A DNA stretch of 57,326 nt, from positions 1-57,326 of the forward strand of contig CAWJZV010000020.1 in NCBI GenBank assembly GCA_963847445.1, given 5' to 3'. This document shows, piece by piece, positions 1 to 22,373 of this stretch. This DNA is from an uncultured delta proteobacterium. Lineage in GTDB: Bacteria > Desulfobacterota > Binatia > UBA9968. A program made the position numbers and the translations under genes. A model generated the notes under the pieces. It was not told where the DNA came from. It worked only from the letters and a program-made list of their open reading frames with translations, and did no database searches. How positions within the stretch are numbered: the first letter of the stretch is position 1; every line of letters begins with the position of its first letter.

Positions 1-392
1 GGGCAACACCTACAGTGCTTACCAAGTTGCCCCATTATTCGTGCCATAATTATTTCCCTGTTTTGCCTCGCCCAGTGAGGCATAACATCTTCCCATGTCT
101 TATTTGAAGGGACATAGATTGTATGTGGGCGTCTCTTGAAATACAGCCTCAATTCGTTATTGCCTTCAACGTAAACTAAATCGCCGTCCTCAGCTCCGCC
201 TCTAATAAATGTATAGTACCCATCAATCAGACGACGAAAACGCTCGCCAAGAAAGATCACTAGGATAGAAAAACCAACAACTCCGAGACTTCCTAGTAGG
301 ATACGATCTGTCCAAGTGGGCAACTGCAAACAAAAAGCAAGAATTGAAACAACGCCAGAAAATAGCACAAGATTTCTTAGGCTATGATACAT
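1..392 (-). CDS. Putative immunity protein of the Rhs toxin (two N-terminal hydrophobic helices; 3' end runs off the window)
   Basis: Not in the ORF track. Read manually from ATG at 392: MYHSLRNLVLFSGVVSILAFCLQLPTWTDRILLGSLGVVGFSILVIFLGERFRRLIDGYYTFIRGGAEDGDLVYVEGNNELRLYFKRRPHTIYVPSNKTWEDVMPHWARQNREIIMARIMGQLGK..., open to the window edge. AT-rich and directly downstream of the Rhs C-terminal toxin. Confidence 0.7.
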   Translation of the reverse strand, partial: MYHSLRNLVLFSGVVSILAFCLQLPTWTDRILLGSLGVVGFSILVIFLGERFRRLIDGYYTFIRGGAEDGDLVYVEGNNELRLYFKRRPHTIYVPSNKTWEDVMPHWARQNREIIMARIMGQLGKHCRCC

Positions 393-476
393 TTTGATTT
401 CAAGTCTAAATTTTCACAACAACCGAGATACTTAATTCCGCTTACATTCATTTAGGATTTAAGCTGTTTCGGCCAT

Positions 477-989
477 TCATCTCAATACAATCTTTGTTGC
501 AGGACTACCACCGATGGCGGAGTGAATTTTGTTCATGATATCAAGTAACGGCTTTTCTACCGCGCTCCACGTTCTTGCTGAGTCCGAATTACGTAAGAAA
601 ATTTGCGCATCACCTTTTGCATTCAGGGAAAAAGTTCTCGAAACCCCATTCCATATACCCTCGGGAATCGGATAGTTTTTGTCAACAAAATTCAAAAGCT
701 TGCCACCCAACGTATCCTCTAATAGTCTTCCAGCGCCTTTGCCAGCACGGGCAGCATCGAGTGCTCCCTCCCCGGAGTAAAACACTGACCGCGCACCGCC
801 GCTAAACGCGCCAGCTCCACTAAACGCTAATTGATGAAACATGCCAGTCCACCACCCCGCAGAATAGGCGGTCGAGCATTGATCAACCACGTCATTCGTT
901 CCTAGTCTCCCACGAATATAATTCGTTATTCCAAAGGTCACCATATCTCCAAAGCCAGCCGCATAATTGGCGGCCGAATCTAGAGCGTC
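477..989 (-). other. Rhs C-terminal toxin domain, ADP-ribosyl cyclase (CD38-like / Tox-ARC) candidate
   Basis: 170 aa after the DPLGL autoproteolysis motif. Motifs VFYSG, LLEDTLGG, IWNGVSRTFSLNAKGD and TWSAVEKPLL parallel CD38 LLWS, TLEDTL, FWKTVSRRFAEAACD and TFGSVE. Confidence 0.7.
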
Positions 990-3900
990 CAAACCAAGGG
1001 GATCGACAAAATAGACGGGGTTGTTCCCGACATACGTATAGAAGTTGGTACCACCGGAAAAGCCAATGAGGTCTTGTTGGATAAATCTTCCAACTGAGGG
1101 ATCGTAGTATCTTGATCGGTAAAAATTCAAGCCACTCTCTGAGTCGGACTCCCTTGCCGTATAGCCGTATAGCTGCACAAAATTCGCATCCAACTGCGAT
1201 TCAATCTTGCCGAACGACGAATAGGCATAACGTTGAGCCACCGTCCCGGACTGGTTCGTCAGCTCAGTGATGCTGCCCAGCCCATCCGCATGATAGTAAG
1301 ACCGATTGGTTATTCTTCTCCATGATCAGAGGCTCATCGATGCCGGGACCATGAGTGTAGCGGGCGACGATTTGGATTGGCGCCGTTCAGTTCGAGGAGG
1401 ATGTCTTCGTTGTCGTAGACGTACTTGGTTATCGTCGCGGTGCCGGCGATCACTTCCTTCTCGACTCTTCTGCCTAGACCATCGTAACGATAGTTCGCCG
1501 TGTTGCTGGGTGACACAACGCGAACCAGTTTGTTGTCCGCATCGTACTCGTACTGCGTGATAGCGCCGCCCAACTTCGCAGTCTTGCGGGTCAGGTTCCC
1601 GTTGTTGTCGTACTGGTATGTGAAGTTTGCGTCTTCCAACAACTGGTTCGCCGGGTTGAATATCGACGCGCCGTTCTGGTTGGAGTCGGTCCGGTTACCG
1701 ACCGGATCGTAATTAAAAGTTTCGAGCGGATTCGTTGGCAGTGGATTCACCGCTTGCGTCAACCGGTTCAACACATCGTAGGTGTAGTTCGCAATGCCAG
1801 CATTGTCGCCCTTCGACTGCCGATTCCCTACCTTGTCATACGTGTAAGCGAACGCGTTGATCGTCACGCCGCTTCGCTGGTGTGTGAGGTTTAATAACTG
1901 CGACGCCGCATCGTAGGTGTAGTTCGGTGACAACACCATTGGCGTGCGTCATTGATGTTCGTCGACCTAACGCGTCGTACGTAAATGAAGTGACTCGCCC
2001 CTGATTGTTCGTGATCGAGGTCAACCGGTTCAGCGCGTCGTACGCGTACGTCGTTAGGCCAGTCGGATCGATCATTGACGTACGGTTGCCGTTGAGATCG
2101 TAAGTGTAGACGGGGTCGAGATCATCCAACTTTGGATTTTGGATTTCCGATTTTGGATTTGACGCCGAGATTTCGGAAATACCACTCCCCGCTGCATTAA
2201 CGCTGGATGTTGCGAAGGGTCGGAGTTTTCCTGCCGCAATCATGGCGAGATAAAGGTTCGCGTACTGTCGATCCGACGCCGAGTCCGTAACTGCGAGGAC
2301 CTCAGACGAAAACACTTTCCGTTGCTGCAAATCTGTGTCGGCGATAGGTGTTTGCACCGCAGTGCTGCCGATAACGGTATTCCCACTACTCAGAGAAGCG
2401 TTAGCTTGATCCATACCGGACACGACTGGACTGACAGTCCGCCGTACTCCTCGCAAACTTCCATTGCGCGGTCATCACCGGCATTGCGTCACCAAACGTC
2501 GGACTTAGCTTGGCGATCTGCTGTTGCAAATGGATCGTACCGCTCTGGCCGTTCGGTGCGCCGCTACCAATTCCGCCGTTTACTGTAATGTTAGAAAAAT
2601 TGAAACCAGTGGCGCTCCCGTAATAGACCGCAACTCTACCGCCCCCACCGCCACCACCGCCGGAAGGTGTACCGGGACTTCCGTTGGCGCCGATAACTCC
2701 GGTACCAGAAAGTGTACCGACATCAATACGGATTCCACCTCCGCTACCGCCGGCGCTGAATCCTTCGGCTAAACCTCCACCCGCGCGCACAGCTCCGTTG
2801 AGGACAAATGTTTGTGCCGCTATGCGTGCGAGACCACCACCATTTCCGGCAGGACTACCATTAAATCCACCTCCACCGCTGCCCACGTCATTTGGATTCG
2901 TGGCAACACCATACAATGGATTTGTCGAACCGCTGAATGCACCGCCTAATCCGCCATAGCTTCCAGCGGTACCCGAACCATTTACCGACTTGAACCCTAA
3001 AGTCATACCATTGGTAGAACTCGGGTTCCCCGGTCGTCCACCACCCAAAAACCCGATGCCAATGACATCGATCCGACTCGTTCCGTCGATTGTTAAATTT
3101 TCGGTCGCCAAATCAAGTTTGAACGCCGCGGTCCCGGTCGTCGCCGCGTGGGTGAGTACCGAGTTGTTGGTCAAGTTAGTGCTATTCGAGATAACCCGAA
3201 CACCCGATGCATATTCGCTATTGTTCGAGACTTCTAATGTTCCCGTAAGATTCAGAGTTCCATCGAATTTCGCCCGAGCATTGCGCCGAATTCGGAGGTG
3301 GCTGAACGAAAGTGTCGTCGATGACGCACCTTGAATTGGAGTCCTCGAAGCGGCCAGCAGCGTCAAATTATTATTGTCAATAACTAACTCGCCACTTTCA
3401 CTAGCCGGCCCTTGCAGGTAAACAGTACCCGCCCCTCCATTTGGAGAGCCGGCACCTAGAGCTCCGAATGAGTTAACATTATTAAAGGAAAAACTTGTTC
3501 CGTTTTGATAATAGATCGCTATCCGCCCACCACCGCCGCCGCCGCCACCCGCCGGCACGAATCCCGCACTTCCGTTGGCTGAAATTGTCCCGCTCCCTTG
3601 CAGCGTTCCAACATCGATCCTGATTCCGCCGCCACTCCCTCCAGCACCAGCACCATCTGCAGTTCCACCGTTCGCCCTAATAGACCCATTCACCGACATT
3701 GATTGTGCAACGATCCGCGCCAAGCCACCGCCATTACCGGCGGGGGCTCCTTGGAATCCACCGCCACCGCTACCAACTTCATTAGGATTCCTAAAGTCGC
3801 CGTACACGGGATTAGTTGCACCGGAAAAGTTACCGCCCAGGCCGCCATAGCTTCCCGCCGTTCCCGATTGGTTCGTCGATTGGAACCCTACCGTCATTCC

Positions 3901-6900
3901 ATTAGTCGTGCTTGGGTTTCCAGGTCGCCCACCAGCCAAGAAGCCTCGACCACTGACATCAATCCGGCTCGTGGCGTCGATATTAATGTTCTGGGCATTT
4001 ATGTCGAGTTTGAAGGTTTGGGCCGACGTTGTTGATGCGTGTCCCAGCTTGCCCCCGGTGATCAGCTCAATCGTATTGGCTGTAATACCATTACCGATCA
4101 CGAATTCGCCGTTAGTGGCAATTTCCAAGGCACCTGAAATATTTAACGTACTGTCCAGCTTCGCGAGAGCTGTTCGACGAACCCGCAAATGCGTTAATGA
4201 CAAAGTAGTGTTAGCAGCACCTAGTATCGGTGTCGTCGAGGTAACTGGAACCGTCAGGTTGTTATTGTCGACAACTAGCTCGCCGCTCTCTCTAGTCGGA
4301 CCCTGCAAATATACGGTTCCCGCGCCGCCATTGATCGAACTGCCACTGAAGGCCGCGCCAAAGGCCGTCACATTCGCAAAATTGAACGTTGCTGCGCTCT
4401 GATAATAAATAGCCACTCTGCCACCACCGCCACCACCTCCACCCGCAGGCACAAATGCCGGACTTCCGTTTGCGGCAATTGAACCCGTTCCCGAGATCGA
4501 TCCAACGTCGATCCTAATACCTCCGCCACTCCCGCCAGCGCCGGAACCATCCGCAGAACCTCCGTTAGCTCGAATGGATCCATTGAGCACAATTGATTGC
4601 GCAACGATCCGCGCTAAGCCACCGCCATTACCCGCAGGGGCGCCTTGGAATCCGCCACCACCGCTGCCAACTTCACTGGGATTCCTAAAGTCGCCGTATA
4701 CGGGATTCGTTGAACCGGAAGAGTTACCGCCCACGCCGCCATAGCCTCCCGCAGTTCCCGATTGGTTTGTCGCCTGGAATCCCACCGTCATTCCATTCGT
4801 CGTGCTGGGATTTCCCGGTCGCCCACCAGCCAAGAAGCCTCGACCACTCACATCAATCCGGCTCGCGGAGTCGATTTGGATCGTGCCTGTTACCACAAGA
4901 TCGAGCTTTCCGAGCGTGGCCTCCGTCGTTGGAGTATGGGTCAAGACGGCGCCGTTCAGCAGGACTACGTTCGCAAAGGTGTGTTGCCCGTTGACGGTCA
5001 ATGTTCGGCCGTTAACTTGTAACGTCTGGCCTTCAAACTGAAAATTGGTTGCGCTGATGGTTGTATCAACGTTTATAGGAACGACTGCCGTGGAGAGCGC
5101 CGATTCCGGGGTCGAGCTACTGGAAGCCAAGCGGTTGGCTGCGTCATAGGTATTGAAGACACCCGTCGCAGGATTGATCACGGACAAGAGATTGCCGACA
5201 GAATCATAGGCAAAATTCGTGACGTAAGGGTTAGTTTCCGTCGACGTCGGTGGACGCGTTTTGCTGATAAGACGGTTCAACGCGTCGTAGTTGAATACAA
5301 TTATCTGGCTGTTGCGGTTTGTCGTGGAAGTCAGATTACCATTACTGTCGTAGGTAAACGCTTCGGTAAACCCCAGCGGATTGGTTGCGGACGCGAGACG
5401 ATCTAGACCATCGTAAACGAAAGTTGACAGCTGATTCTTGGCGTCGCGGACCTGGATTAGGTTACCCTTCGGATCGTAGCCGTACTGGGTGGTTTTGAGA
5501 TCAGCGTCTAAAACCGTGATGAGCCGATTGCGCGCATCATAGGTAAACTGCGTGACACGATTCTCGGCGTCGGTGGAGGTACTGACGTTGCCGGCGCTGT
5601 TATAAGCCAACGTCGTCACGTCGCCTTTCGGATTTGTCGTCGTAACCAGATTACCGTTCCCGTTGTAAGCGAAACTTGTCGTCGTTTGAACGGCAGTTCC
5701 GACTGCGGAAGTAACTAACAATAGCAATCCGCGCGCGTCGTAGCTCATTTGAGTGCGATTGCTGAGCGCGTCGATGATCTCAATGGGATTGCCCTTCACG
5801 TCGTAGTTGATCGTAGTGGTATTGCCCTTGGGATCGCGGATCGTCTTGACCTGATTAAAAACCGGTTCGTAGGTAAAAATAGTCGTAGCGCCGACGGGGT
5901 CGGTTGTAGTCAGCAGATTTCCGTTCGCATCGTACGCCATGGTCGTGACCGCGCCGTTTGGTCGGGTGATCCGTGTCGGCAAGCCATTGGCGTCGCGCAC
6001 TGTAGTCGTTGTTTGACCGAGGGCGTCTGTTTGAGATGTCACTTGTCCGAGCGCGTCTAGAACAAATCTATTCTGGTTGCCTCTTCCATCGGTAAGCGAC
6101 GCTGTGGCGTTTTGGCTTGTCACAATCGGTGCCGGGTTGGTCGGCGTACCCTGGCCTACTGCGGTGTCGACAAGACCGCGAAGCTTGCTGGAAACTAGCG
6201 CGCGCGTCTCGCCGGTCGGACGGGTCGACTGGGCGAATCGCCCGGCGAAGTCGTACGCATATGTGGTGCTTTGCCCCCGCTCATCGGTCGCCTGTGTGAC
6301 ATGACCCTTGCCGTCGTAGGCATAGGCCATGAAGGTCGCATCTGGGTTGATAATCCGAAGCAGATTGCCCGCTGAGTCATGCTGGAAGATCGTTTGCCGT
6401 CCAGCGGGATCGGCGATGCTCTGGAGCTTGCCACCGCTATAGGTCAAAGTCGTCACCAATCCAGCCGGATCAGTGACGGCAAGCAGTCTAGCGCTGCCAT
6501 CGTAGGTAAACGTTGCCGTATTCAGGTTTCGATCGACGATCGAGGTCTGAAGGCCCTGGGTGTTGAAATTACTCTTAGTTCCGTCCTTGTACGTTCGCGT
6601 GTACGTGCCGTCTGCGGAGTTTCTGGCTAATGTCGAGAACTCGCGCGCGGGAGAAGTAAACGTATCAGGGCCTCCGGAGAAAAACAGCGCCGTGCCGTCG
6701 CCACTGGTGAGGAGGACACCGCCGCCGGGTTGGACATGGAGTTGCTGAAGATCGCTGATCGCCCAACCGGCGCCAATGGCACTGCTCTTTCGATTAAATA
6801 CAATCACACTACCGGTAGAAATCCCGCCGACGGATGAATTGAGATAGTTGCTAAAGACCGTCGCTTCAAACGGATAGCGCCCGGTCGCCAAATTCGACGC

Positions 6901-9900
6901 ATCGAACTGGACCGACATGCGCGAGGTGGAATCGGAGTCTTCCGGCAACGAACTACTGTTAGTGTGAATCTCGCCACCCTGCTGGACGCCGCCAACTTTG
7001 AGCCGAGTTGAAAATGAATTGGGTACCGCGGCACGGACACTCAACGTGCTGTCTAAGGAAATAATCGGCCTGGGGTCGGCAGTTATAGAACTGTAAGTGA
7101 GTGACAGGTTCCGGCTTTGTCCGAGCGAGCGATAGGAAGACAAACCATGTGAGAGGTATAAGCTACCTTCTTCCAAGTTGGCTTCTGATCCAACGGCAGT
7201 GCGGCAAGATCCGCAGAAATTGTTTCCCTGACTCGGGTTCGAAGTCGTACTTGAAGCGAGCGGGAAATGCCAAGCACTGGCGGACACGCCGCCTTCAACC
7301 GTGACAACGCTCACGCCATCGGCGGACACCGCGCTCTTGCCAACGATATTGAACTTTCCAGTGTCAGGGCTGAGCGACCAGAGATTGAACTCATTACCTG
7401 GCGGGACGCCATCGGCGTTCGGGAATGTGATCCGCGCGGGTGGGTTAAAGCGAATGCCTGCCGGCTGGATGGTCACCGCCATGCCAGGGCGCAATTCTTC
7501 AGGACGCGACTCGGGGCGGCCATAATCAGGGACCGGATTGATCGAGAGCTTGCCGGTAAACGGTGTACCATCCGCGTTGAATGCCGAGCCGCCAGCGATT
7601 TCAAGCATAGCGCCCGGCAGGTTGGGATTGGTAACCACGGTCTCAAAAACCGCACTGACCTGGACCTCGGCTTCCACGTCGACGTCAGGGAGTGAGATCG
7701 CTGAATTCAAATCGTTGAGCACACCGTCAATTAGCTCCACCGCCACAGCAATGATCGCAAACACGCCGAGGTTGGCGTTGCGGCCGTTAACGATGAGTTG
7801 CTGGGTTGCGGAAGGAACGCCAGTGATCGTGAAAATACCGTCAGCGTCGGTCACTCCCGTGTGACCGCTGGATCGCAGCGTCACTTGCACGTTGCTGAGC
7901 GGGACATTTTGCAGATTGACGACCTTGCCGCGAACTGCGGTGGTGCCGCCTGGCGGCGGATTGGGCACGGTGATGGTGATGGTTTCTGAGGCGGAATTTG
8001 ACCCGGCGGAAGCGGAGAAAGTGAGTTGATAGCTTCCCACCTGGGTCGTGCTCGGCCGGAAAGTGAACACACCCGTGGCGGCATTGAACGTCGCGTGGGT
8101 CATCAGCGGCAGCGGCGCGACGAACAAGCTTGCCGAACCGGTGGCGCTGATGGCGCTCACGGTAAAAGTCAACGTCTCGCCGAGATTGGCGGTCTTGTTG
8201 CCGATCGGGTTAAGCACCAATGCCGAACCGATGGTCGCCGTGGTTTGCGAAACCGCGCTCGTGCCAAATGTGTCGGTCACTGTCAAAGTGACGGTGTATA
8301 TGCCGGTCGCAGCGTAAGTGTAAGTCGGATTCGCTCCGGTGCCCGTGCCGCTGCCTGTGGTGAGCGGCGTCGAACCATCGCCAAATGTCCACGAGTAAGT
8401 AATCGGATTGCCATCCGGGTCGCTGCCGGTGCCATTGAATTGAATTGGTGTACCGACATTGCCGCTGTACGGACCGCCGGCATTGGCCGTGGGCGGTAGA
8501 TTGACGAGAATAACATTAATCGAAACCGTGGCGGTCGCGCTGGTGCTTAGGCCGTCGCTTGCGTTGAACGTGAAACTATCGGCGCCGAAATAATTGCTCG
8601 CCGGTGTGTAGCTCACAGTCGCCGTGCAGGTCACACCCTGGCCCTGAACCGCGCAGTTGGGCGCGCCTATATTGCCGAGGGTTCCGTTGCTCGGGGGGGT
8701 GGCGATGTTGAACGTTAGTACTTTGTGATCGATGTCGCTGGCACTGAGGGTGACAATCACCGGCGTGTTTTGATTGGTGCTGATCGACTGCGACTGCGCC
8801 ACCGGAGGATCGTTGACATTGACAACCGTGACCTGCGCCATCGCCACGTTGCCGTATAGGGTTCCATCGAAAACTCGATAAGTAAACGTATCGACGCCGT
8901 TAAAGTTGGCCTCGGGAATGTAATTGAACGAACCGTTGGCATTGAGACTAAAACTAGTCGCGTGAGTCGGCCCGGTGACCAGCTCAACGGTCAGAGTCTG
9001 GCCGACATTGAGATCGCTATCGTTTTCCAGCACGCCGGGCGCGGCGATACCCAGGACGCTATCTTCCGCCACACTGTAGTTATCGTTGTTGGCCACCGGC
9101 GCGTCGTTCACTGGATTCACCGCGATGGTCACCATCGCGAGATTGCTGTCGCTCGCGCCGTCGTTCGCCTTGTAAGTAAAACTATCCGCGCCATTGAAGG
9201 TGGCTGCCGGCGCGTAGCTAAACGAACCGTCGGGATTGAGGGTAAAAGATGCCGCATGACTCGGTCCGGTAACCAGAATTGCGGTGAGATTGGCCTGCGG
9301 CGAATCGATATCGTTGTCGTTGGCTAATACGCCGCGAGCCAGGACTTCCAGCGAGGTATCTTCGTCGGTATTGTAGATGTCATTGGTTGCCACCGGTGCG
9401 TCGTTCACCGGGTTAATTGCGATCGTCACCGTCGCATCGTTGCTGTCGGTGCTACCGTCGTTAACTTTGTAGGTAAACGTGTCTGTACCGTTATAATTGG
9501 CTGCCGGCGTGTAACTGAACGAACCATCGGAATTGAAGGTGAAAGACGCCGCGTGGCTGGGAGTTGAGACCAGAACCGCGCTTAAGTTCGCGGCCGGCGT
9601 ATCGATATCATTGTCGTTGCCCAAGACTCCGGGCGCGCCCGTGCTGAGCACCGTAACCTCATTGGTATTGTAGAAATCGGCGCTGGCCACCGGGGCATCG
9701 TCGATAACGTTGACGACGATGGAAATCGTCGCAGCATTGGAATCCACAGCGCCGTCGTTGACCCTGAATGTAAAACTATCCGAACCACCGGAGTTGGCGC
9801 CGGGGGTGTACGTGACCGTGGCGGTGCAGATGGTTCCTGGAGTGCCGGTGTTATTGGGCACAGCGGTACATGAGGTGCACCGATAGCGCTGAGGGAGCCG

Positions 9901-12161
9901 TTGCTCAGGCCGGTGACGATATTGAACATCAGGCCGGTGCTGTCGATATCGATAGCGCTGAGCGTGATGACTATGGGGTTGTCTTCGTTGGTCTGCGCGG
10001 TGCCGTTGCTGGCGACTGGCGCATCATTGACTGGCAGGACAGTGAGCGAAACCGTGACAACGGTGGAGTCCAAGGGATCGTCGTTGGCTTTGAAGGTGAA
10101 ATTGTCCGGGCCGTTGTAGTTGGCCACGGGAGTATAAGTCACCGTGGCGGTGCAATTTGACCCCGCGCCGCTGGCGACACAATTCGGCGATGAAACAGCG
10201 CCGAGTGTGCCGTTGGTTGGAGCGGCGACGAAACTGAAGCTCAAGCTCGCGCTGTCGACGTCGCTCGCCGCGAGCGTTATAGCTACCGGCACATCTTCGT
10301 CGGTGGATACAGTGGCGCCGTTAGCGGTTGGCGCGTCAGCGACAGAACCCACCGAAATCGAGGCGGTGGTTACGTTGCTGGTGGCGAGGCCGTCAGTGAC
10401 CGCGAATGTGAAGCTGTCCGCGCCATTGAAGTTGGCCGCCGGGGTGTAGGTAACGCTGCCTGTACAATTACCGCTCGAACAGGTGAGCGTGCCGCTGTTG
10501 GCATTTAGCGTGCCGTTACTCGGAGCAGCGACGACGTTGAAACTCAAAGTCGCATCGTCGAGATCGATAGCGCTGAGCGAGACAATGACGGGCGTGTCTT
10601 CGTTGGTAGTTGCGCTAATATTGTTGGCCGTGGGTGGATGGTTGATGGCCGTAACGGTCACCGTGGCTGGCGCACTATTGAATTGCCCGTCGTTGACTAC
10701 CAACCGAAGGATATAATCGCCTATGACCAGCGGCGTGAATGTCGGGTTAGCCGTGTTGGCGCCGGTGAGCGTGATGTTGCTGCCAGCGGCCTGGGAGACA
10801 ATCGTCCAGAGAAATCCCAGCGGCGCGCCTTCGGGATCGCTGCTCTGAGTGCCATTGAGTGTAACGATCTCGCCCGTCGGCACGGTCTCAATGGCACCAG
10901 CGTCGGCCACCGGCGGTGCATTGGAAAACTCGAAAGCACCGGCATCGAAAGCTGGAACACGGTTGGCGTTGCCGTCGGCCGGTCGGATGCCTTCAACGGC
11001 AAAGTCAGCTTCGAAGATCGGATTGAACGACGGATTGAAGCCAAGAGTGCGCGGGTCCATGCCGGCGTCGATGGCGAGGGAATTGGGCTTCAAGCTAAAA
11101 TCGTCGTCCACCGTGTTCGCCCGCTTGTCGTGACCGTTCTTGTTGGCGAACAGATTTGCCGGCAGCTGGCAGCCCGGCAGTGCGCCAACGCCGGCGCCTT
11201 CGCTGCCCGTCGGCGTGAAATTGCCGGAGTCTGTGGCATCGAGTAATTGCGTCGAGATCTGGCCCTGGGTGTTGCCGCAGACAAGATTGTTCAACAGCCG
11301 GATATTTTGTGGTTGGGGTGTGCTGGAGCTTTCTCTTCTGACTCCAAACCGGCCACCGGTGGTCCCCGATGCGGTGCCGTTGCCATTGACGATATTGTTG
11401 GCGAGCAGAACCGTCTGGCCGCGCGCGACGTTTATGCCATTTCTTCGATTGCCGTAGACCGTGTTGTTTATGACGTAATGCGGACCGCTGCCGCTGCCCT
11501 CAAAGGCAATGCCGTTAAGACCATTGGCATAAATTAAATTGTTGACGATCAGCGTCTCGCGGTTGCCGGCACTCACGACGACGGCACCGTTGCAGGTGCT
11601 GCTAACGTTCCCGTAAATCCGGTTGAGCTCGATGTGAATAGCCACGTTGTTCACCTTGCCGCCGCCGTCAGTGTCGTCGCCATCCCCGCTTGGGGCAAGC
11701 CAAATCGCTGGTCCGGCAACGTTGGTAATGATGAGATCGCGGATGGTGATATAGCGGCTGTTGCGCAGTCTAATACCATAGCTTGGCCCGTCATCGTCGC
11801 CGCACCCGCTGTCATCATCACCGCCACCTCCTCCTGTTCCACGAACTATGACACTCCCCACCGGGCTGTTGGGGTCGGACTCGATGACGATGCGGTGCAT
11901 CTCGGTGGAACTGGCGATTCTATTCTTATTAGAAACTCTGACCTGTTCCGTATAGATGCCTGACTGAATCCGCACGATGTTGCCGGGGCCGGCGGCGTTA
12001 ACCGCCGCCTGAATCGTCGTGTAACAGAGAGTATGCCCGCCGCAAGTGGGATCGGTGCGGTTGACGTAGCGAATGGTCTGGGCTTGTGCTGTACTTATAT
12101 GAAGATTGATAAGAAAAAACAGAGACAGGGAAAGGACGGTAAACCGTTCATGTTTAACCAT
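477..12161 (-). CDS. Giant secreted Rhs/YD-repeat polymorphic toxin/adhesin (~3,890 aa after joining frameshifts near 9875, 2400-2480, 1925 and 1375)
   Basis: ORFs 9582-12185, 2401-9861, 1836-2456, 1334-1939 and 477-1241 join into one protein. Order: signal peptide (MVKHERFTVLSLSLFFLINLHISTAQA), parallel beta-helix (NNLIYAN/NNTVYGN), PKD and seven ~95-aa Ig-like repeats (NDAPVA...YTP), carboxypeptidase-regulatory-like domain, YD repeats, Rhs core (YGYTARESDSESGLNFYRSRYYDPSVGRFIQQD...NPVYFVDPLGL), variable C-terminus. Confidence 0.88.
2131..2162. repeat. Heptamer tandem repeat (TTTTGGA/TTTCCGA) in frame within the Rhs linker
   Basis: tttgga-ttttgga-tttccga-ttttgga-tttga, translated as SNPKSEIQNPK. 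Same unit as the intergenic repeats at 14645 and 24031. Confidence 0.75.
2510..5110 (-). repeat. Three tandem ~297-aa glycine-rich repeats inside the Rhs protein
   Basis: RIDVSGRGFLAGGRPGNPSTTNGMTVGF...GSGGGG...GNGGGLARIVAQ...GGSGGGIRIDVG...GGGGGGGRVAIYY...GGAGTVYLQ recurs at spacings of 894 and 891 nt (anchors near 4832, 3938, 3047). Confidence 0.9.
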
Positions 12162-12175
12162 CGTTGCGCCACGGC

Positions 12176-12673
12176 TCACAAGCACCGTTGCTCAACCTGT
12201 TCCTGAAGCTTTTCGTAGGCTTTGAGTAGATCCGTGGAAGTCAGAATGCCGGCGACCCGGCCGTCGGGTCCGATCACCGGTAAGCAGTTGACGCGCTTTT
12301 CGAGCATCAAGCGCACCGCGGCGGAAATCGCGATCTCGGGCGTGGTCGTGATCGAATCGGGGTTCATGATCTCGGCCACGCTCCTCTTGCTCCAGTCCGG
12401 CGTGCGCGACAGCGCGCGCAGCACGTCGCGATCGGAAATCACGCCGTGAAGGCGTTCGTCCTCATCGACGACCAGCATATGATGGAAGGAGCGGGTCGCC
12501 ATCATGCCGACCACCTCAGCGAAACTTTGATCCGGCAGCATGGTCCGGACGTCTTTGGTCATGATGTCGCCCACCTGTGCAGGAGCGTTTATCGAAACGT
12601 GCAGAGTTGTTGGCATTTGAGTTTGTGTACTTGTCGTTTTATCCACGGCTATTCTCCTTCCTTGGCGTTCCAC
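12176..12673 (-). CDS. CBS-pair domain protein
   Basis: VGDIMTKDV...HHMLVVD...GVISDRD...VAEIMNPD...CLPVI...GILTSTDLL. Abuts the cheY stop and ends just upstream of the Rhs ATG. Confidence 0.85.
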   Translation of the reverse strand: MERQGRRIAVDKTTSTQTQMPTTLHVSINAPAQVGDIMTKDVRTMLPDQSFAEVVGMMATRSFHHMLVVDEDERLHGVISDRDVLRALSRTPDWSKRSVAEIMNPDSITTTPEIAISAAVRLMLEKRVNCLPVIGPDGRVAGILTSTDLLKAYEKLQEQVEQRCL

Positions 12674-13052
12674 TCACGGCAATATCTTGTTCAACTACTC
12701 CTGGAGCGTCGCCGCGTTGAACGGCTTAGCGATGTAATTGCTAACCCCGGCCTGGGCCGCTCCGAGGATGTTTTCCTGTTTGGCTTTCGCAGTCACCATC
12801 AGCACCAGCGTGGTCTTCAAGCCGTCTGCGGCGCGGATGCCTTCAACAGCTCGATCCCGGTCATCCCCGGCATGTTCCAGTCGGAGACCACGAAGTCGGC
12901 TTTTGGCGTTTTCAGTTCATCCAACGCCAACTCACCTTTTCCGCGTCGCGCAACTTTTTGAAATCGAGATCCTTCAACAAACCGCGCCCGATGCGGCGTA
13001 TCGCCGAAGCGTCGTCGACGATCAACAGGTCCATATCAGGATCAACAGCCAT
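12674..13052 (-). pseudogene. cheY: cheY pseudogene
   Basis: Manual translation [112 protein letters not shown]. Two 1-nt deletions plus an in-frame TAG at 12695-12697. Confidence 0.85.
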
Positions 13053-13148
13053 TTCGATTCTCTTTCAGTCTTCCGTCGTTTCACTGTGTACTCGATCGCG
13101 GATCGCCAGGCGGCGGGCGCTCAACAAATCACTCGGTGCACTTTAAAT

Positions 13149-13175
13149 TCATCGGAAAGATAAGCCGGTTCTTTA
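13149..13175 (-). promoter_or_regulatory. sigma28 (FliA)-type promoter
   Basis: Minus strand TAAA-GAACCGGCTTATCTT(15 nt)-TCCGATGA versus consensus TAAA-N15-GCCGATAA, ~100 nt upstream of cheY. Confidence 0.7.
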
Positions 13176-13259
13176 ACCGAAATTCACCGGCGGCGAGGTT
13201 AAACCGAGATCCCTTCTGGCATTTGAGAAGACACTGGACGGCTCAACCTTACCGAGCGC

Positions 13260-13292
13260 AAAAAAGGCGCGGGAGCCGAAAGGCTCCCGCGC
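13260..13292 (-). terminator. Rho-independent terminator of the flagellar operon
   Basis: 11-bp stem GCGCGGGAGCC-GAAA-GGCTCCCGCGC with an A6 tract on the left (U-tract on minus strand), just after the flgE stop. Confidence 0.85.
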
Positions 13293-13329
13293 AGAAATAA
13301 TAATGATAATCGTCGTCAGGCGTCGTCGA

Positions 13330-14625
13330 TTATCGTTTCAGGTTGGACACTTCCTCGAGTAGTGAATCGGTCACGGTGATGGTTCGCGACGAGGCTTGGA
13401 AGCCGCGCTGGGTGGTCACCATCTTGACGAACTCGGTGGCCAAATCGACGGTCGAAAGTTCCAGCGAGCCGGATAGGACGGTACCGAAACTGCCGTCGCC
13501 GGGATTGCCGTTGAGCGCAAGCCCGGACTCGGGCGACTGGAGATAAAGCGAATTGCCGACATGGGCGAGCCCCTGGGGGTTGGCGAAGTCGGCTAACGCG
13601 ACGCGAAACAGCGGTTGGTTGCCGCCGGAAGTAAACTGGCCGGAGATCACACCGTCGGTGCCGATGCTGATGCCCTTGAGAATGCCTGATTGCGCGCCGT
13701 TCTGATTGATTTGGCTCACCGAGGAGGGCAGGGCAAATTGGGTCGTGCCGGTGAAGTCCATATCGACCGCGGCGACGGTTTGCGGGTTGGCGCCGTTGTT
13801 CCACGCGATCGCGGCGACATTGGTGATGTTCGAGTTTGCCGTATCCAGCGAACCGTCGGGATTGAAAGCCAACAAGCCGCCCGCGCCGTTAATCTGCTGG
13901 AGACTTCCCGCCGTGCCGCCGGTAATTTCGCTGGCGTTGGCGACCACGCGATAGTCCCATTCGTTCGCGGTCGCGGTCTTGCTAAACAGATAAGTCAGGT
14001 CATGCCCCTGGCCGAGCGAATCGAATACAGTCACCACCGTGGAAAAGTTGGCGCCGGCAAACCAATTGCCGGCGGTGTCCTCGGTGCCGGCCGCATCTGC
14101 CGGCAGCGCCGCGGTCGGCACCGTCTTGGTGGCGTCAAGATTGAGAGCGAGATCGATCTCGGTGGTTTCCACCGGCGACACCACCAACTGACTGATGACG
14201 ATATTGGTCAGGCCGCTGATCGGATTGCCATTGGCGTCCAACTCGGTTCCCTGGACTCTCAGACCGCCGGGGTTGACGAGATTGCCGTCCGCGTCGACGC
14301 TGAACTGTCCGGCGCGGCTGTAAAAGGTCCCGCCCTGAAGGTCGCGCAGAACGAACAGCCCTTTGCCTTGAACCGCCAGATCGGTGGTGCTGTTGGTGGT
14401 CTCGACGCCGCCCTGAACAAACAGCCGGTTGGAATCCGCCAAGCGCGACCCCAGACCGATCTTGGTGCCGCCGACATCGGCGCTCAAGAGATCGAAAAAC
14501 ACCGCGCGGCTCGATTTGAAACCGATCGTATTGGCGTTGGCGATGTTGTCACCGATGATATTCATCGCGTTACCGTTGCTGTTGATGCCGCTGACGCCCG
14601 CGAACAATGCTCCTGTTAATGCCAT
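13330..14625 (-). CDS. flgE: Flagellar hook protein FlgE (copy 2)
   Basis: ALFAGVSGI...IGDNIANANTIGFK, TDLAVQGKGLF, YSRAGQF, LELSTVDLATEFVKMVTTQRGFQASSRTIT. Confidence 0.92.
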   Translation of the reverse strand: MALTGALFAGVSGINSNGNAMNIIGDNIANANTIGFKSSRAVFFDLLSADVGGTKIGLGSRLADSNRLFVQGGVETTNSTTDLAVQGKGLFVLRDLQGGTFYSRAGQFSVDADGNLVNPGGLRVQGTELDANGNPISGLTNIVISQLVVSPVETTEIDLALNLDATKTVPTAALPADAAGTEDTAGNWFAGANFSTVVTVFDSLGQGHDLTYLFSKTATANEWDYRVVANASEITGGTAGSLQQINGAGGLLAFNPDGSLDTANSNITNVAAIAWNNGANPQTVAAVDMDFTGTTQFALPSSVSQINQNGAQSGILKGISIGTDGVISGQFTSGGNQPLFRVALADFANPQGLAHVGNSLYLQSPESGLALNGNPGDGSFGTVLSGSLELSTVDLATEFVKMVTTQRGFQASSRTITVTDSLLEEVSNLKR

Positions 14626-14644
14626 GAAGAACCTCCTTGAAGTA

Positions 14645-14754
14645 TTTTGGATTTTCGATTTTGGATTTTCGATTGCCGGATATTTAGCGCCATCATTGCG
14701 CTGTTTGTTTTCTGCCTTTCTTAATTTGTCATTTTGAATTTGGAATTTTTAATT
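14645..14754. repeat. Heptamer tandem repeats between the two flgE genes
   Basis: (TTTTGGA-TTTTCGA)x2 at 14645-14672 and degenerate TTTTGAA-TTTGGAA-TTTTTAA at 14732-14752. Confidence 0.7.
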
Positions 14755-16009
14755 ACCCTTTCAGCTCCGCCGCGATGCTGTACATCTGCTCGGCGGTGGT
14801 GATCACTCGTGAATTGACCTGAAACGCCCGCTGTAAACTGATCAGCGAAACAAACTCCCGCGCTAGCTCAACGGTCGATAGCTCGAGGCTGCCCGCCACC
14901 AGGCTGCCAAAACCATTTTGACCGGGAGTACCGGCTAGCGCGGCGCCGGATTCGAAGTTCGGGGCGAACAGCGTATTGCCGAGCGGGTCGAGATCGTCAA
15001 TGTCGTTGAAGTTAGCCATGGTGATTGACGCGAGTTGCTGCGTGAGACCATTGGTAAATTGGCCATTGACGTTTCCTTGCGAGTCGACGCTCACCGCATT
15101 CAAGGTACCGGCGGCGTAACCATCCTGGTCGAAACTAAAAAGAAACGATGGCTGAGCGAATTGCACGGTGCCGGCAAAATCAATGGCGCCGGCAGGAATC
15201 GTCTGGGCCGCCCCATTGGTCCAGTTGAGTCCGCTAATGTCGCCGATCGTGCTGGCGGCGCCATTGAGCTGCCCGGTGGCAGTAAAAACGAAAGTCCCCG
15301 GCACACCCACTTGGCGCAGATCGGTGCTGGACGGCGCCGTGCCATCGAGTTCGCTGCGCGGCGCCACCACCTGGTAGTCCCAGGTATTGGGCGCGCTCAG
15401 ACGAAACAGGAATGTCAGATCATGGCTGGCGCCCTGACTATCGTAGATGGTCGCCACCGTGGAGAAATTGCTCGACGCGACCCATTGCGCCGGACTGGCA
15501 TCGGGCCCTGCGGGAAATGGCGTACTCGGGGTGGTCGATGACGCATCGAGATTGAGTTGCATGGCGAGATTGCCGGTGGCCTGCGCCGGGATCGCGAGCG
15601 CGCTATTGATAACGATATCGCCGGCAGAGCCTTGAAGAATCTGCCCGCCCGGATTGACCATCTGGCCGGCGCCGTCGAGGTGGAACTCGCCGGCCCGCGT
15701 ATAGCGCAGGCTATTTGACAGCGGGTCGCGCACGACGAAAAAACCGTTGCCGGATATCGCCAGATCCAACGCCCCATTGGTGGTTTCAAGGGCGCCCTGT
15801 TGGAATGGTTTGCCGACATCGGCCAAGCGCGCGCCATTGCCAGTTTCGATTTCACCCCACACCGTCGGCATGACATCGTCGAAGGTGAAGCGGCTGGATC
15901 TGAAGCTCACGGTATTGAGATTGGCGATATTGTCGCCGGTGATCTGCATGGCGTTACTGAACATCTCCATGGCGTTGCCGGCGACTTGCATGGGTCCGAT
16001 TATCGACAT
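14753..16009 (-). CDS. flgE: Flagellar hook protein FlgE (copy 1)
   Basis: GDNIANLNTVSF, LDLAISGNGFF, YTRAGEF, LELSTVELAREFVSLISLQRAFQVNSRVITT. Start reset to ATG 16009 after a GGAGG RBS. Confidence 0.88.
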   Translation of the reverse strand: MSIIGPMQVAGNAMEMFSNAMQITGDNIANLNTVSFRSSRFTFDDVMPTVWGEIETGNGARLADVGKPFQQGALETTNGALDLAISGNGFFVVRDPLSNSLRYTRAGEFHLDGAGQMVNPGGQILQGSAGDIVINSALAIPAQATGNLAMQLNLDASSTTPSTPFPAGPDASPAQWVASSNFSTVATIYDSQGASHDLTFLFRLSAPNTWDYQVVAPRSELDGTAPSSTDLRQVGVPGTFVFTATGQLNGAASTIGDISGLNWTNGAAQTIPAGAIDFAGTVQFAQPSFLFSFDQDGYAAGTLNAVSVDSQGNVNGQFTNGLTQQLASITMANFNDIDDLDPLGNTLFAPNFESGAALAGTPGQNGFGSLVAGSLELSTVELAREFVSLISLQRAFQVNSRVITTAEQMYSIAAELKG

Positions 16010-16022
16010 CGAATTTCCTCCG

Positions 16023-16688
16023 TTAGCGTGACGCCCGCACCGCGATGACACTGCTGAGCGGCACATCGACACCGTTCACTTCCAACACCGGCTCGGTGCC
16101 GTCGAGCCGCACACCGGTAACCAATCCCTGGAGTTTGCCGGATGCGGCGATTTTCTTGCCATTGACATCGACTGCATTGATGTCGAAGCCGTACACGCCC
16201 GGGCGCGCGCTTTTACCGGTGCTGTCTTTGCCGTCCCACACCAAGGTTTGTTCGCCGGCACTGCGCGCGCCGGCATCGAGACGCCGGACGATCTCGCCAT
16301 TGGCGTCGAACACAGTGATGACGACCTTGGTCGCGTTGGCGCCCAACTGATAGCCGATGTTCGACGCTGCGCCGGCGCTGACACCGACTTGATTGCCGGC
16401 GGAGGTGATCTGCTTGCCGATCAAGGAAGCCGCGTTGTACTGATTCATCGAGCCTTGACCATTGTTCATCGCGCCGAGCTTGTCATTGATTTCGATCAAC
16501 TGGCCGAGGCTGTTGAAGGTCGCCAACTGCGCCGCGAATTCTTGATTGTCCATCGGCTGCAGCGGATCTTGATTCTGCAATTGCGTGATCAAGAGCTTGA
16601 GAAAATCGTCCTGGCTGGCGACTTGGTTCTTGAGCGGATTCGTCGCAGTGCTGGCAGCCGCGGCGGCGTTGACATTTTGTACGGCCAT
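16023..16688 (-). CDS. flgD: Flagellar hook capping protein FlgD
   Basis: DDFLKLLITQLQNQDPLQPMDNQEFAAQLATF and WDGKD motifs. Confidence 0.95.
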   Translation of the reverse strand: MAVQNVNAAAAASTATNPLKNQVASQDDFLKLLITQLQNQDPLQPMDNQEFAAQLATFNSLGQLIEINDKLGAMNNGQGSMNQYNAASLIGKQITSAGNQVGVSAGAASNIGYQLGANATKVVITVFDANGEIVRRLDAGARSAGEQTLVWDGKDSTGKSARPGVYGFDINAVDVNGKKIAASGKLQGLVTGVRLDGTEPVLEVNGVDVPLSSVIAVRASR

Positions 16689-16717
16689 GTTCGATCCTTA
16701 TAATAGTTATAGAGTTG

Positions 16718-18477
16718 CTACGCCCACATGCTGACGCGTCCATCGGAGTTGCCCACAGGTTGCGCCAAAGGTTCTGTCATCGCCTCGTCAGCGACCCCGG
16801 AGTTAGCCACGCCTCGAGAAGATTCCTGCCGACCGTGCGGCGATTGGCTAAAGTCTTGCGCCAGCGCGCCGCCACCGTTCCATTCGCCCTGGGTCACCCG
16901 CACTTCACCGAAGTCCATCTGGCCGGCGCGCAAAGCCTGATGCAATTCGGGCAGATGATGCTCAATCAACGCATGTGATTCCTGGCCTTCGGCGGCGATG
17001 CGGACGTGCAGTTGGCCGTCTTCGATGCGCAGTTCGATTTTCACCTTGCCCAGTTCGGGCGGATCCAATTGCAGTACCGCTTGTCGTTCGCCGACGCGAA
17101 AATGCTCGCCAATATCCCGCGCCAGCCGCTCCACCATGGGACGCCAAGCTGGTGCCGCGGTTGCACCGCGGTAGGATTCGTCAAGCCGCGCCGGCGCCGC
17201 GCCGGCAACCATGGACGGATTCGCTTGGCCATCGCCTTCGCGCGGCTGACCTTGCCAACCATCCTTGGCGGCGCTGTGTTCGTCGCCAGGCGACGCTGCG
17301 GCCATGGCGGGTTGGCTGTGCTCGCCATCCCGCATAACCGTGCTGGCATCCGCTAAGCCGAAGGTCGCGGGATTCGCCTCGGGATCGATCTCCAGCGGCC
17401 GCTCCGTGAAGGGGGAACGGTGCATCCCGTCCGACTGTTTCAGCGCAGCCGTAGCGTTAGCCAAAAAAGAATCGTTGAGGGTCATCGACACACGGTTTTC
17501 ACTACGCAAGGATTGCGCTTTGAGGTTATCGCGATCATCCGACCTTGACGGAGCTTTCGTTGCGGAAATCGGCAATGCAACCTGTTGCTTGGTCGTCAAG
17601 TCATCGTTTGCTTGGTTGAGAAGTTCTAGGGGCTGTCTCTCCACGGCTGTGGCCATCTCACTGGCGAGCGAAGTCCGCATATCGACGATCGGCGATCGCG
17701 GCATGGCACTGCCATCGAGTCCAGTGGATTTATTGAGTGGCGATGCGCTCTGTCGCATGTCAGTACCCACGTCGCTTTTGGCCGAAGCCTCGAACATAGC
17801 TGGCAGCGCGGTGCCGATCAGCGGCTGAGTTAACGTCATCTGCGGCGTTCCAGCCAAGCCAGTCTCGGCTAACTCATTGACCGGCGGCTCGTCATCGCGC
17901 CGCGGGCGGTGCTCCATGGTCACCGGCGCAGCGTCAACGGCATCAGTAGATTGCGTATCTCGGCGCTTGATCTGCCAGCATCGTCTTGGCGTTCGACCGC
18001 GGCAAGGGTCGGCGTGTGGCGGCAGATTCGACAATCGTGCGGACATCGCTGTGGCACTCGGCAAATGGCAACCTGGCGACTTCGATCTCGCTGGAGTAGC
18101 TCGCGCGGCAAGGGTCGGCGGCAGATTCAACAATCGTGAAACCGGCGGTTCGCTGGCTGGCAACGCCGGCAAATCACGAATACCGAGAGATTTTTCTGTC
18201 TAGGCGAATGAGCTTCGGCGCCGATAGGATTTGCCGGTTCGCTTGCCGACGCCGGCGCTGCGGCTGGCAACATCGAGGGTTCAGTACTCGCGGCTGAATC
18301 TGCCGGCGCCGGCGGCGCGATTTGGGCCGCTGGCGCCGGCGCCAAAAACATATTGAACAGTTGCGCGAAAACATTGACCGGTGCGGCTTCCTCGGACTCA
18401 TCCGGTAAACTTGGCAGCGGCAGCAGAGATGTTGATTGGGTATCGTGGACGATCATGCCGGACAGCGACATGAGCAA
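16718..18477 (-). CDS. fliK: Flagellar hook-length control protein FliK (frameshifted)
   Basis: C-terminal LQLDPPELGKVKIEL...LPELHQAL motif and Pro/Ala-rich N-terminus in a second frame (18127-18477). Located between fliJ and flgD. Confidence 0.8.
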
Positions 18478-18611
18478 GAGGGAGGCCAGAGAGAAATCCG
18501 CCGTAAAACCATCGGCACGAACGAAAAACTCTTTAGCCTAGGCAACCCACGCAGTAGGACACGGAGAAATGGCATCAAGGCGGCTAGGCAGATGTTGCTC
18601 GAACCGGGAAA

Positions 18612-19064
18612 TTATTTCCGACTTGGACCGACAACGAATTTTCGCTGCGCCATTTCGTCGGTGAACTTTTGCTCGGCACTATCCTGTTCACGGCGGAATT
18701 TATTCGTTTGGCGTTCGCGTAGCCGCTCCAGAGACTTAACCCCGCGCAGTGCTTCGACGAGTTCGCCGCGCTTGCCGGCGATCGCCGCATCGAGCTTGGT
18801 CATCGTCGCGGCTTTGGCTTTAATGCCTTGGTCGATGCGCTGGGTATATTGGCTGGCAAGCTTTAAGTCGATGACCGAGAGAATCTCGCCGATGCCGGCG
18901 CCTAGGACTTCGTCCATAGTCCGGAGTTCCTGTTCCAGGGCGGCGATTTCCGTCTCCAGAGAATGCCTCGCTTGGTTGAGTGCCAGCAGTTCCCCCTCCT
19001 TTTCTTCCTTGAAACGCTGGCGCAGACGCAGCACCGCCTCGAGACGAAATTTGAACACGGCCAT
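18612..19064 (-). CDS. fliJ: Flagellar export protein FliJ
   Basis: FKFRLEAVLRLR...KSLERLRE...EQKFTDE, directly after fliI. Confidence 0.9.
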   Translation of the reverse strand: MAVFKFRLEAVLRLRQRFKEEKEGELLALNQARHSLETEIAALEQELRTMDEVLGAGIGEILSVIDLKLASQYTQRIDQGIKAKAATMTKLDAAIAGKRGELVEALRGVKSLERLRERQTNKFRREQDSAEQKFTDEMAQRKFVVGPSRK

Positions 19065-19074
19065 AAATTATCGT

Positions 19075-20391: not shown

Positions 20392-20418
20392 GTTGAAGAC
20401 TCTCGGATTCCGAACTTC

Positions 20419-20528: not shown

Positions 20529-20619
20529 GATGTTCCGAGTTTCACTTGCGGCCACGTGGGTTGGGATCCCCGTGGTGAAAAATCATCCACAGTAAGCCCC
20601 AAGCTTCTCCGGCACTGAC

Positions 20620-22366: not shown

Positions 22367-22373
22367 ATTTCAT

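Follow-up and report, generated by a model that had tools for sequence, protein, structure and literature searches.

The stretch of DNA analysed here, referred to below as the window, comprises 57,326 nucleotides (nt) and represents the first 57 kb of contig CAWJZV010000020.1 from the genome (7.19 Mb, 48 contigs) of an uncultured delta proteobacterium of the Binatia lineage. At 12185..477, its minus strand encodes one Rhs/YD-repeat gene of ~3,900 amino acids (aa), which in the window is spread over at least five reading frames. The product appears to be a Rhs/YD-repeat polymorphic toxin, seemingly exported through the Sec pathway. One loop of its YD shell holds a cassette of three tandem glycine-rich units followed by a low-complexity linker, and we are confident of this anatomy. 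The recognizable parts of the locus are the following.

Architecture of the locus

9582..12185, minus strand: N-terminal piece, 867 aa; signal-peptide-like start, right-handed beta-helix (PF13229), PKD and bacterial cadherin/Big_9 domains
2401..9861, minus strand: frame of the protein P0001, 2,486 aa; RHS/YD repeats at residues ~1000-1581
6865..9861, minus strand: stalk and pre-shell region, P0001 residues 1-999; tandem-95/cadherin-like, PKD, He_PIG and CarboxypepD_reg-like domains
5119..6864, minus strand: YD/RHS shell, N-terminal ~60%, P0001 residues ~1000-1581; ends ...YDAANRLASS
4165..5118, minus strand: unit A with lead-in, predicted Gly-rich beta-solenoid, P0001 residues 1582-1899
3271..4164, minus strand: unit B, predicted Gly-rich beta-solenoid, P0001 residues 1900-2197
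2518..3270, minus strand: unit C, predicted Gly-rich beta-solenoid, P0001 residues 2198-2448; ends ...TIHLQQQ, without the ~45-aa inter-unit connector
2109..2517, minus strand: putative return linker, ~136 aa, low-complexity; short conserved motifs NLYLA, L.PFA and DDLDP; holds the frame break at 2463/2464
1242..2108, minus strand: YD shell, C-terminal ~40%; starts YTYDLNGNR; frame breaks at 1923, 1376 and 1297
990..1241, minus strand: RHS repeat-associated core (TIGR03696, E 8.1e-23); ends DPLGL (990-1004)
477..989, minus strand: polymorphic C-terminal domain (presumed toxin) with stop codon, 170 aa; no family match; third-position G+C content (GC3) 0.44
3..392, minus strand: hydrophobic open reading frame (ORF), candidate immunity protein by position only, 130 aa; runs off the contig start; GC3 0.385

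The N-terminus (MVKHERFTVLSLSLFFLINLHISTAQAQ) resembles a Sec signal peptide when judged by eye. The two upstream frames, 9582..12185 and 2401..9861, are mutually out of frame and overlap at 9582-9861, and the rest of the gene is distributed over frames 1836..2456 and 1334..1939, a short third-frame piece and frame 477..1241. Matches of P0001 to RHS_repeat (E 2.9e-74, 10 stretches) and YD_repeat_2x (11 stretches), that is, repeats of the PF05593 and TIGR01643 types, are complemented by additional YD repeats in frames 1836-2456 and 1334-1939 and by the Rhs core in frame 477-1241, which reaches 80.7 bits against TIGR03696 (cut-off 32.5). No PAAR domain was found in the Pfam scan of frames 9582-12185 and 2401-9861, and genes of a type VI secretion system (T6SS) elsewhere in the genome were not searched. 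Neither the 170-aa tip nor the 130-aa ORF downstream of it matches a Pfam or NCBIfam model. Core and tip together (tblastn segment 1677-1949) are 77.7% identical to the homologue P0002, compared with ~98% upstream. The closest named homologues come from metagenome-assembled genomes (MAGs) labelled 'Candidatus Binatia'.

A triple-unit cassette in one loop of the YD shell

The YD repeats of the N-terminal shell part end with ...FNTYDAANRLASS at window position 5119 and restart with YTYDLNGNR at 2082-2108, in the overlapping frame 1836..2456. These borders (5119/2108) agree to within about 10 nt with an initial annotation made from the DNA letters, which had the YD shell interrupted from ~5110 to ~2115 by three glycine-rich repeats of ~297 aa and a low-complexity linker. 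The repeats are as it described them: the motif SRIDV is found at P0001 residues 1667, 1965 and 2262, giving periods of 298 and 297 aa, and relative to the first ~298-aa unit, the second and third show 69% and 57% identity. At the DNA level, the repetition is visible as a 300-nt stretch of 75% identity with a spacing of 894 nt, and in translated searches the units match each other at E 1e-87 to 1e-118, far beyond chance. Glycine accounts for 20-25% of the residues, with five Gly-rich runs per unit. Because the final unit of every array ends at model position ~250-255, the last ~45 residues of the period represent an inter-unit connector; the cassette consists of three tandem ~255-aa Gly-rich modules with ~45-aa connectors, after which the low-complexity linker of ~136 aa connects to the following YD repeat. 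The linker is 85% identical to P0002, as against 98% for the flanks. Within the source genome, the units are confined to this gene.

In two related loci, L007:640-3138 (genome G018) and L010:655-3111 (genome G029), the units of one gene have near-identical Gly-rich stretches, unlike the orthologous units elsewhere, a pattern that points to intragenic gene conversion (concerted evolution) among the units there.

Presence and absence of the cassette among relatives

The search with the insert yielded 1,533 proteins among 8,000 scored candidates and that with the C-terminal shell part 7,756; the 218 homologues listed from these searches were pooled, and the two 160-aa flanks as well as the units were located in them. 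Both flanks are at least 45% identical to P0002 in 69 of the 218, which constitute the comparison set. Thirty-five of the 69 contain no unit (flank distance 7-10 aa), three contain one (P0132, P0137 and P0166; 360-500 aa) and 30 contain three (921-1,059 aa), whereas in the remaining protein, P0068, the third unit is interrupted, with four module matches and a flank distance of 1,217 aa. The insert-less junction reads ...YDLANRLTST / TASSPSxPAKTIS / YTYDLNGNR..., that is, a 10-17-aa loop rich in Ser, Thr and Pro, located exactly where 30 homologues carry the three units. Among the insert-less proteins is P0122, a tandem-95 protein of 'Candidatus Binatia' whose flanks show 68% and 74% identity. 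The domain thus lies between YD repeats of a shell that is continuous on both sides (flanks contiguous in the 35, separated in the 30), as in the SGS1/TcB type of decoration, and the initial proposal of an insertion into an otherwise continuous YD shell is upheld.

In an alignment with RhsA (7q97), the pre-insert part (P0002 residues 2-357) corresponds to residues 436-790 and the post-insert part (P0002 residues 1408-1779) to residues 902-1290. Both parts add up to a single shell of normal length that is interrupted at roughly 60%, with a register that may be off by 1-2 repeats owing to the YD periodicity. A quick maximum-likelihood tree was built from 66 rows of the C-terminal shell part and rooted at its midpoint; in it, all 28 three-unit rows belong to one 34-row clade (SH-aLRT 93) that also includes five insert-less rows and a one-unit row, and the well-supported branches of this tree force at least three state changes. 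The cassette has accordingly been lost or gained repeatedly, and the shell is independent of it. At the level of genomes, units are present in 7 of 40 relatives (6/24 in the genus, 1/5 in a second family and 0/11 in a third), and six of these seven carry three units in one open frame of 2,908-3,864 aa.

The initial annotation had also envisaged homologues that lack the insert or carry other domains at its position; 35 proteins are insert-less, and close relatives have a LamG domain inserted at other shell sites. This LamG/concanavalin-like domain (PF13385) was located in P0122 (2275-2430), P0123 (890-1041), P0130 (1345-1520), P0137 (278-450) and P0176 (1202-1365), at positions that vary relative to the YD junction: in P0176 it follows the studied junction by ~100 residues, and in P0137 it lies ~500 residues upstream of it, with one Gly-rich unit at the junction itself.

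Codon composition

GC3 amounts to 0.66-0.75 in the immunoglobulin-like (Ig) stalk, 0.63-0.67 in the N-terminal shell, 0.75 in the C-terminal shell; nine other genes of the window have a value of 0.72. The values for the three units are 0.44-0.55 and those for the linker and the Rhs core 0.57 and 0.54. Since the dip is present in Val, Ala and Pro codons too, it is not just an effect of the glycine codons. The more AT-ending codon usage that the initial annotation had noticed in the insert is therefore real (0.44-0.55 for the units versus 0.63-0.75 for Ig stalk and shell), but it does not serve as the sign of a recombined cassette for which it had been taken, because the dip is shared by all six relatives' loci examined, down to ~52% protein identity. 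A recent horizontal origin of the insert, considered on the grounds of GC3, was rejected for the same reason. Judging from these orthologues, the dip looks like an old, inherent property of the module and not like the trace of a recent transfer; what supports gain and loss of the block as a cassette is the pattern of presence and absence on the shell tree.

The C-terminal toxin tip (0.44) and the downstream ORF (0.385) have the lowest GC3 of the locus, which fits an exchangeable toxin/immunity pair of unknown type.

Frame breaks and integrity of the gene

The window copy lacks the single uninterrupted reading frame that its relatives possess: the frame breaks near 9840-9861 and at 2463/4, 1923, 1376 and 1297. 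Short-read contigs of four runs from four studies were aligned to window positions 400-5300, a stretch outside which the break near 9840-9861 lies. At 1297 and 1376, all four runs have one base fewer than the window, and the same holds at 1923 and at 2463/2464 for both runs covering each place (X1 and X5 leave ~2200-3500 uncovered and are uninformative there). The window copy thus carries four single extra bases, all in non-homopolymer contexts. As the best 31-mer share with any public run is 0.55, and no such run contains the exact sequence, the aligned contigs come from close relatives and not from the source sample. The proteins P0002 (from another assembly; 98% identical, 1,949 aa) and P0006 (78%, 3,849 aa) read through the break at 2463/4 and the three later breaks. 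The region 2400-2480, where the initial annotation had allowed for a true gene boundary splitting two proteins, accordingly turned out to contain a single extra base, absent from both covering runs. Contig joints that 'skip 864-873' or 'go back 894' were considered as natural variants and rejected; they are short-read collapses between units, with sides of 18-22 nt in all but one.

Two further genes of the window are split in a similar manner. UbiD (34304-35594, minus strand) consists of two overlapping frames matching consecutive parts of one Pfam model (positions 3-79 and 72-203), and the Na/sulfate symporter (52004-53498, minus strand) is divided likewise (model positions 2-197 and 201-465). 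Consequently, either indel errors or many pseudogenes extend well beyond the Rhs gene.

Most likely, the frameshifts are assembly indel errors, an origin about twice as probable as true pseudogenization. Should the five frameshifts be real mutations instead, the window copy would be a decaying pseudogene from which the protein is no longer made, an alternative that we consider somewhat unlikely. The four extra bases, clustered within 1.2 kb and in non-homopolymer contexts, speak for decay and against error, as do the absence of the exact sequence from public runs and the fragmented copy, carrying a TAG, in the related genome G003. Yet unrelated housekeeping-type genes of the window are split alike, it is the window that has the additional base at each of the four places, and the translation of the broken C-terminal shell is still ~98% identical to the intact P0002, which argues against long decay. 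Moreover, the breaks cluster at the contig end, and consensus quality is usually lowest at contig ends.

Predicted fold of the insert

The AlphaFold2 model of the whole 897-aa block, built with 37 orthologues, has a mean predicted local distance difference test score (pLDDT) of 85.7 and a predicted template modelling score (pTM) of 0.82; only the linker start is unconfident, and the last ~20 query residues are out-of-frame translation. For a single unit (B) with 35 diverse rows, the corresponding values are 93 and 0.92. Both models belong to the all-beta class and show a periodic pattern of long and short strands. In whole-PDB structural alignments (VIA), the single unit matched EtpA (Z 10.7; 181 aligned, root-mean-square deviation (rmsd) 4.4), HMW1 (10.2), FHA (9.5), Awp3b (9.1), HxuA (9.1) and VacA (8.5), with tailspikes, pectate lyases, autotransporters and left-handed beta-helices in lower rows, and the whole insert matched EtpA at Z 12.0 (191 aligned, rmsd 3.3). 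With Foldseek, neither model returned a PDB row at E <= 0.001. The predicted fold class of the unit is a beta-solenoid.

About 180 of the 301 unit residues superpose on known beta-helices, and the strand count of the model suggests some nine rungs and a length of roughly 40 Å per unit. When the sequence is compared with the DSSP assignment, three of the five Gly runs (...NGGGL-ARIVAQ..., ...GSGGGI-RIDVG... and ...GGGGGGGGR-IAIYY...) directly precede long rung strands, so that these runs represent arcs of the coils, in which the chain may locally take up a polyglycine-II-like conformation. Unit positions ~70-147 (~75 residues) are nearly devoid of regular secondary structure in DSSP and make up an additional Gly-rich excursion. 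Beta-solenoid sequence families (Fil_haemagg, Beta_helix, Pectate_lyase and the like) did not match the units in the Pfam scans, no NCBIfam model falls on P0001 residues 1590-2486, and a PDB sequence search with the insert returned chance rows only (superoxide dismutase, E 2.2; plant PHR2, E 3.4).

Distribution of the module

A phmmer search with one unit against 1.84 billion representatives identified 6,178 proteins at E <= 1e-3, of which 3,630 reach E <= 1e-10 and 1,215 reach E <= 1e-30. The modules form arrays of 2-12 copies, with giants of up to ~7,000 aa that also contain Big_5, Big_7, Big_2, LamG, TSP3, Ig-like and similar domains. In some Rhs proteins, for instance P0020, 4-6 units precede the shell on its N-terminal side; in the compared shells, the studied loop holds three units or, rarely, one. 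The module thus represents an unnamed family, with no Pfam or NCBIfam model, that is widespread and resides mostly in giant surface proteins. In the ESM Atlas, the nearest clusters of the unit are unnamed and derive from Verrucomicrobiota, Myxococcota and Lentisphaerota.

In one of the Atlas clusters, a G8 domain is present on 41% of the members, which is a lead only. Two of the three unnamed clusters nearest to unit B are labelled 50-67% Eukaryota (e.g. Mollusca) on the basis of very few records, probably reflecting bacterial contamination of eukaryotic assemblies. A search of the single-unit model against BFVD produced nine predicted viral proteins at E <= 0.001 (16-22% identity, TMq 0.25-0.46), including 'collagen-like', PA14 and uncharacterised proteins of Pandoravirus, Orpheovirus, and Ostreococcus and Bathycoccus viruses; giant viruses may possess a similar Gly-rich solenoid.

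Genomic context

Directly upstream of the toxin gene, the region 12176-24005 (minus strand) contains a CBS-domain gene and a flagellar cluster with two FlgE-like hook genes, FlgD, FliK, a FliI-type ATPase, FliH and FliG; no secretion system for the Rhs protein is evident in this neighbourhood. The genome carries a second Rhs core at G000:C46:290696-290935 (L013), in an open frame of 1,357 aa without Gly-rich units.

Possible role of the cassette

The explanation that best accounts for the locus as a whole, and to which we grant a slightly better than even chance, is that the cassette forms an external, adhesin-like or target-recognition arm of a Sec-exported Rhs cocoon, emerging from one loop of the shell. 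The function of the arm, considered by itself and argued by analogy, is a tentative assignment just short of an even chance. One toxin of ~3,900 aa would comprise a signal peptide, a beta-helix/PKD/cadherin stalk, a YD cocoon closed by the Rhs core and the 170-aa C-terminal toxin, with the candidate immunity gene downstream, and ~60% into the cocoon the short S/T/P-rich loop between YD repeats is replaced by the ~1,000-aa cassette. The lumen of Tc and Rhs cocoons accommodates a toxin domain measuring a few tens of kDa and leaves no room for ~100 kDa; the arm would therefore have to lie outside the cocoon and project outward from the loop, as an elongated adhesin-like rod or a segmented rod. 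As the ends of a solenoid lie at opposite poles, the chain would have to travel back to the shell, and the flexible ~136-aa linker could act as the return tether, possibly docked through its NLYLA, L.PFA and DDLDP motifs. The arm would then be a surface-binding or target-recognition appendage, comparable to the receptor domains inserted in other YD shells, and gain or loss of the cassette would alter the adhesion target of the container while leaving the cocoon undisturbed.

Several considerations weigh against this proposal. The function is argued from fold class and analogy, and Z scores of 10-12 among beta-helices denote a common fold class, neither homology nor function. That the arm points outward, has the shape of a rod and is tethered back by the linker is all deduced for a shell plus insert of ~2,050 aa, the outside position from size only. 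The long passengers Hbp, Hap, Pet and Ag43 align over model residues 1-884 with an rmsd of ~15 Å, so that the three units may be kinked or packed instead of lying in one line. The one-unit variants keep linkers of ~105 aa, and linker length does not simply scale with arm length. Finally, no secretion system that would carry the protein across an outer membrane is evident nearby.

As the main alternative, the arm might be a passive structural element, namely a spacer, an outrigger or a self-association surface that holds the cocoon off the cell surface, packs cocoons side by side or braces the stalk. Such a role would suit a module that recurs in 4-12-copy arrays of giant surface proteins, like a fibre building block, whose most conserved positions are glycines and core residues, with no obvious ligand site, and whose units are homogenised within the gene in some relatives, as befits a structural repeat more than a diversifying binding surface. 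We nevertheless regard it as unlikely, given that the insert is dispensable in close relatives and hence not needed for cocoon integrity, that the ~2,000-aa Ig/cadherin stalk is already available as a spacer and that the best fold matches are adhesins.

The recognition-arm proposal can be extended further, although in this form we consider it quite unlikely: the triple beta-helix arm would be the targeting or entry device of T6SS-free, Sec-exported Rhs cocoons, in effect a contact filament similar to those of CdiA and two-partner secretion (TPS) systems grafted via one loop, and exchanging the cassette (0, 1 or 3 units, with LamG at other loops) would redirect the container, much as phages change the tips of their tail fibres. 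If true, surface proteins in the Planctomycetes-Verrucomicrobia-Chlamydiae (PVC) group, myxobacteria and Binatia would owe a major, hitherto unrecognised adhesin component to the unnamed Gly-rich module (6,178 clusters).

As to the fold, the glycine-rich domain of ALK/LTK and gp38 are polyglycine-II (PGII) folds, and the initial annotation had interpreted the GGxGGG arrays as a PGII helix bundle of the kind found in ALK/LTK, to which the phage gp38 tip may be added. This interpretation is not supported and we deem it very improbable. It could draw on the five Gly-rich runs per unit, on the ~75 residues per unit almost without strand or helix in DSSP, a program that cannot recognise PGII helices, on the gp38 receptor-binding domain (9v85) in weak Foldseek rows (E 3.5-4.4, probability 0.02-0.04) and on phage 'glycine-rich domain' proteins at E 0.25-0.5 in BFVD. 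However, both confident models are beta-solenoids with beta-helix adhesins as their best matches, and three of the five Gly runs enter the long rung strands. ALK, LTK and gp38 fall outside the top 50 of both whole-PDB VIA searches, an absence that is not proof that the folds differ; no ALK or LTK chain is among the listed Foldseek rows either, and the unit profile found no chain of theirs among PDB sequences, only a chance row for PstS (E 0.042). With Pfam at E <= 10, the three window units matched only DUF4369 (E 0.17) and Glucodextran_B (E 0.51), both in unit A and at chance level, and PF12810 remained unmatched; at E <= 1, 21 units gave nothing beyond chance-level rows.

The least probable possibility, to which we assign next to no weight, is an artefact in which a chimeric mis-assembly or two separate genes (shell half plus repeats, and a second YD protein) mimic one gene, as the stop at 2401-2403, the new frame from 2456 and the tendency of short-read assemblers to break within repeats might suggest: the architecture recurs in 30 independent homologues, down to ~50% identity, as well as in single open frames of six relatives' genomes, and contigs from independent studies span 4819-5300 (three runs), 2338-3514 and 2155-2604, bridging both junctions, so that a chimeric assembly is excluded.

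Rhs cocoons have mostly been studied as T6SS cargo. For stalked Rhs toxins that uncultured bacteria of soil and sediment export through Sec, the locus described here offers a concrete candidate, open to testing, for the part that may find targets and allow entry into them. A single defined shell loop tolerates a ~100-kDa appendage while the shell is kept, and the appendage is toggled among close relatives; alleles with and without the insert represent a natural experiment, and the permissive loop should be useful to structural biologists studying cocoon decoration. The module, with 6,178 representative proteins and confident beta-solenoid models, merits the definition of a family. What appears to be new is the nature and size of the insert, the exact toggled site, the return linker and the large Gly-rich solenoid family without a family model; in the open-access full texts searched, we found none of these described, no paper reporting an Rhs shell with a glycine-rich or beta-helix insert and no paper dealing with Binatia Rhs proteins.

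Comparison with known systems

With the T6SS Rhs effectors (RhsA, 7q97; Tre23, 7pq5; Tse5, 8cp6; Tse15, 8uy4; and the Rhs-family protein 8h8a), the protein has in common the YD shell, the DPxGL core and, presumably, a variable C-terminal toxin, and its sequence matches to solved Rhs cocoons reach E 1e-36 to 1e-55. In contrast to these effectors, it has no PAAR/VgrG-type N-terminus and begins with a signal-peptide-like segment and ~2,000 aa of beta-helix, PKD and cadherin domains; among the matches listed, no solved Rhs chain aligns to the insert. WapA of Gram-positives combines, as the present protein seems to do, a signal peptide, a YD shell and a polymorphic C-terminal toxin and is Sec-dependent and T6SS-independent. 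Compared with WapA, the protein studied here has a far larger stalk, an inserted arm in the shell and closest named relatives in 'Candidatus Binatia' MAGs.

For the units themselves, the best structural matches are the TPS proteins EtpA, HMW1, FHA and HxuA, together with autotransporter passengers (Z 9.5-12.0, 130-191 aligned, rmsd 2.9-5.1 Å). The units differ from the TPS adhesins in that they match no sequence family, have longer coils with Gly-rich arcs and contain a ~75-residue Gly-rich excursion each; furthermore, whereas TPS and autotransporter helices are exported through TpsB or a beta-barrel partner, the module sits in a YD shell. The likeness to ALK/LTK and gp38 consists in GGxGGG-type runs within an extracellular protein, and the difference in that the units are predicted beta-solenoids, with no sequence match and no listed structural match to these proteins.

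The decoration of YD shells by domain insertions is already known. In the mosquito protein SGS1 (PDB 8fjp), as related in the relevant passages of its description, segments between YD repeats give rise to domains on the shell exterior that are putative receptor domains, and the beta-propeller of TcB is cited alongside them as likewise decorating (PMC9935623). In SGS1 and TcB, so far as those passages go, as well as in the protein studied here, extra domains are intercalated among YD repeats, with continuing shell on either side of them. By the residue ranges given in the paper, the inserted domains of SGS1 measure ~80-510 aa each (PMC9935623), compared with ~1,000 aa for the insert described here. 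The sites differ as well: residue 2466 of SGS1, just after the wedge domain, aligns with P0002 residue 1533, ~130 residues downstream of the junction, and neither the TcB/TcC boundary nor the SGS1 wedge site was retained as an equivalent position, as the alignments place the junction elsewhere. Unlike the SGS1 insertions as portrayed in those passages, the insert consists of three tandem predicted beta-solenoid modules and a long linker, and its presence or absence is polymorphic among close relatives.

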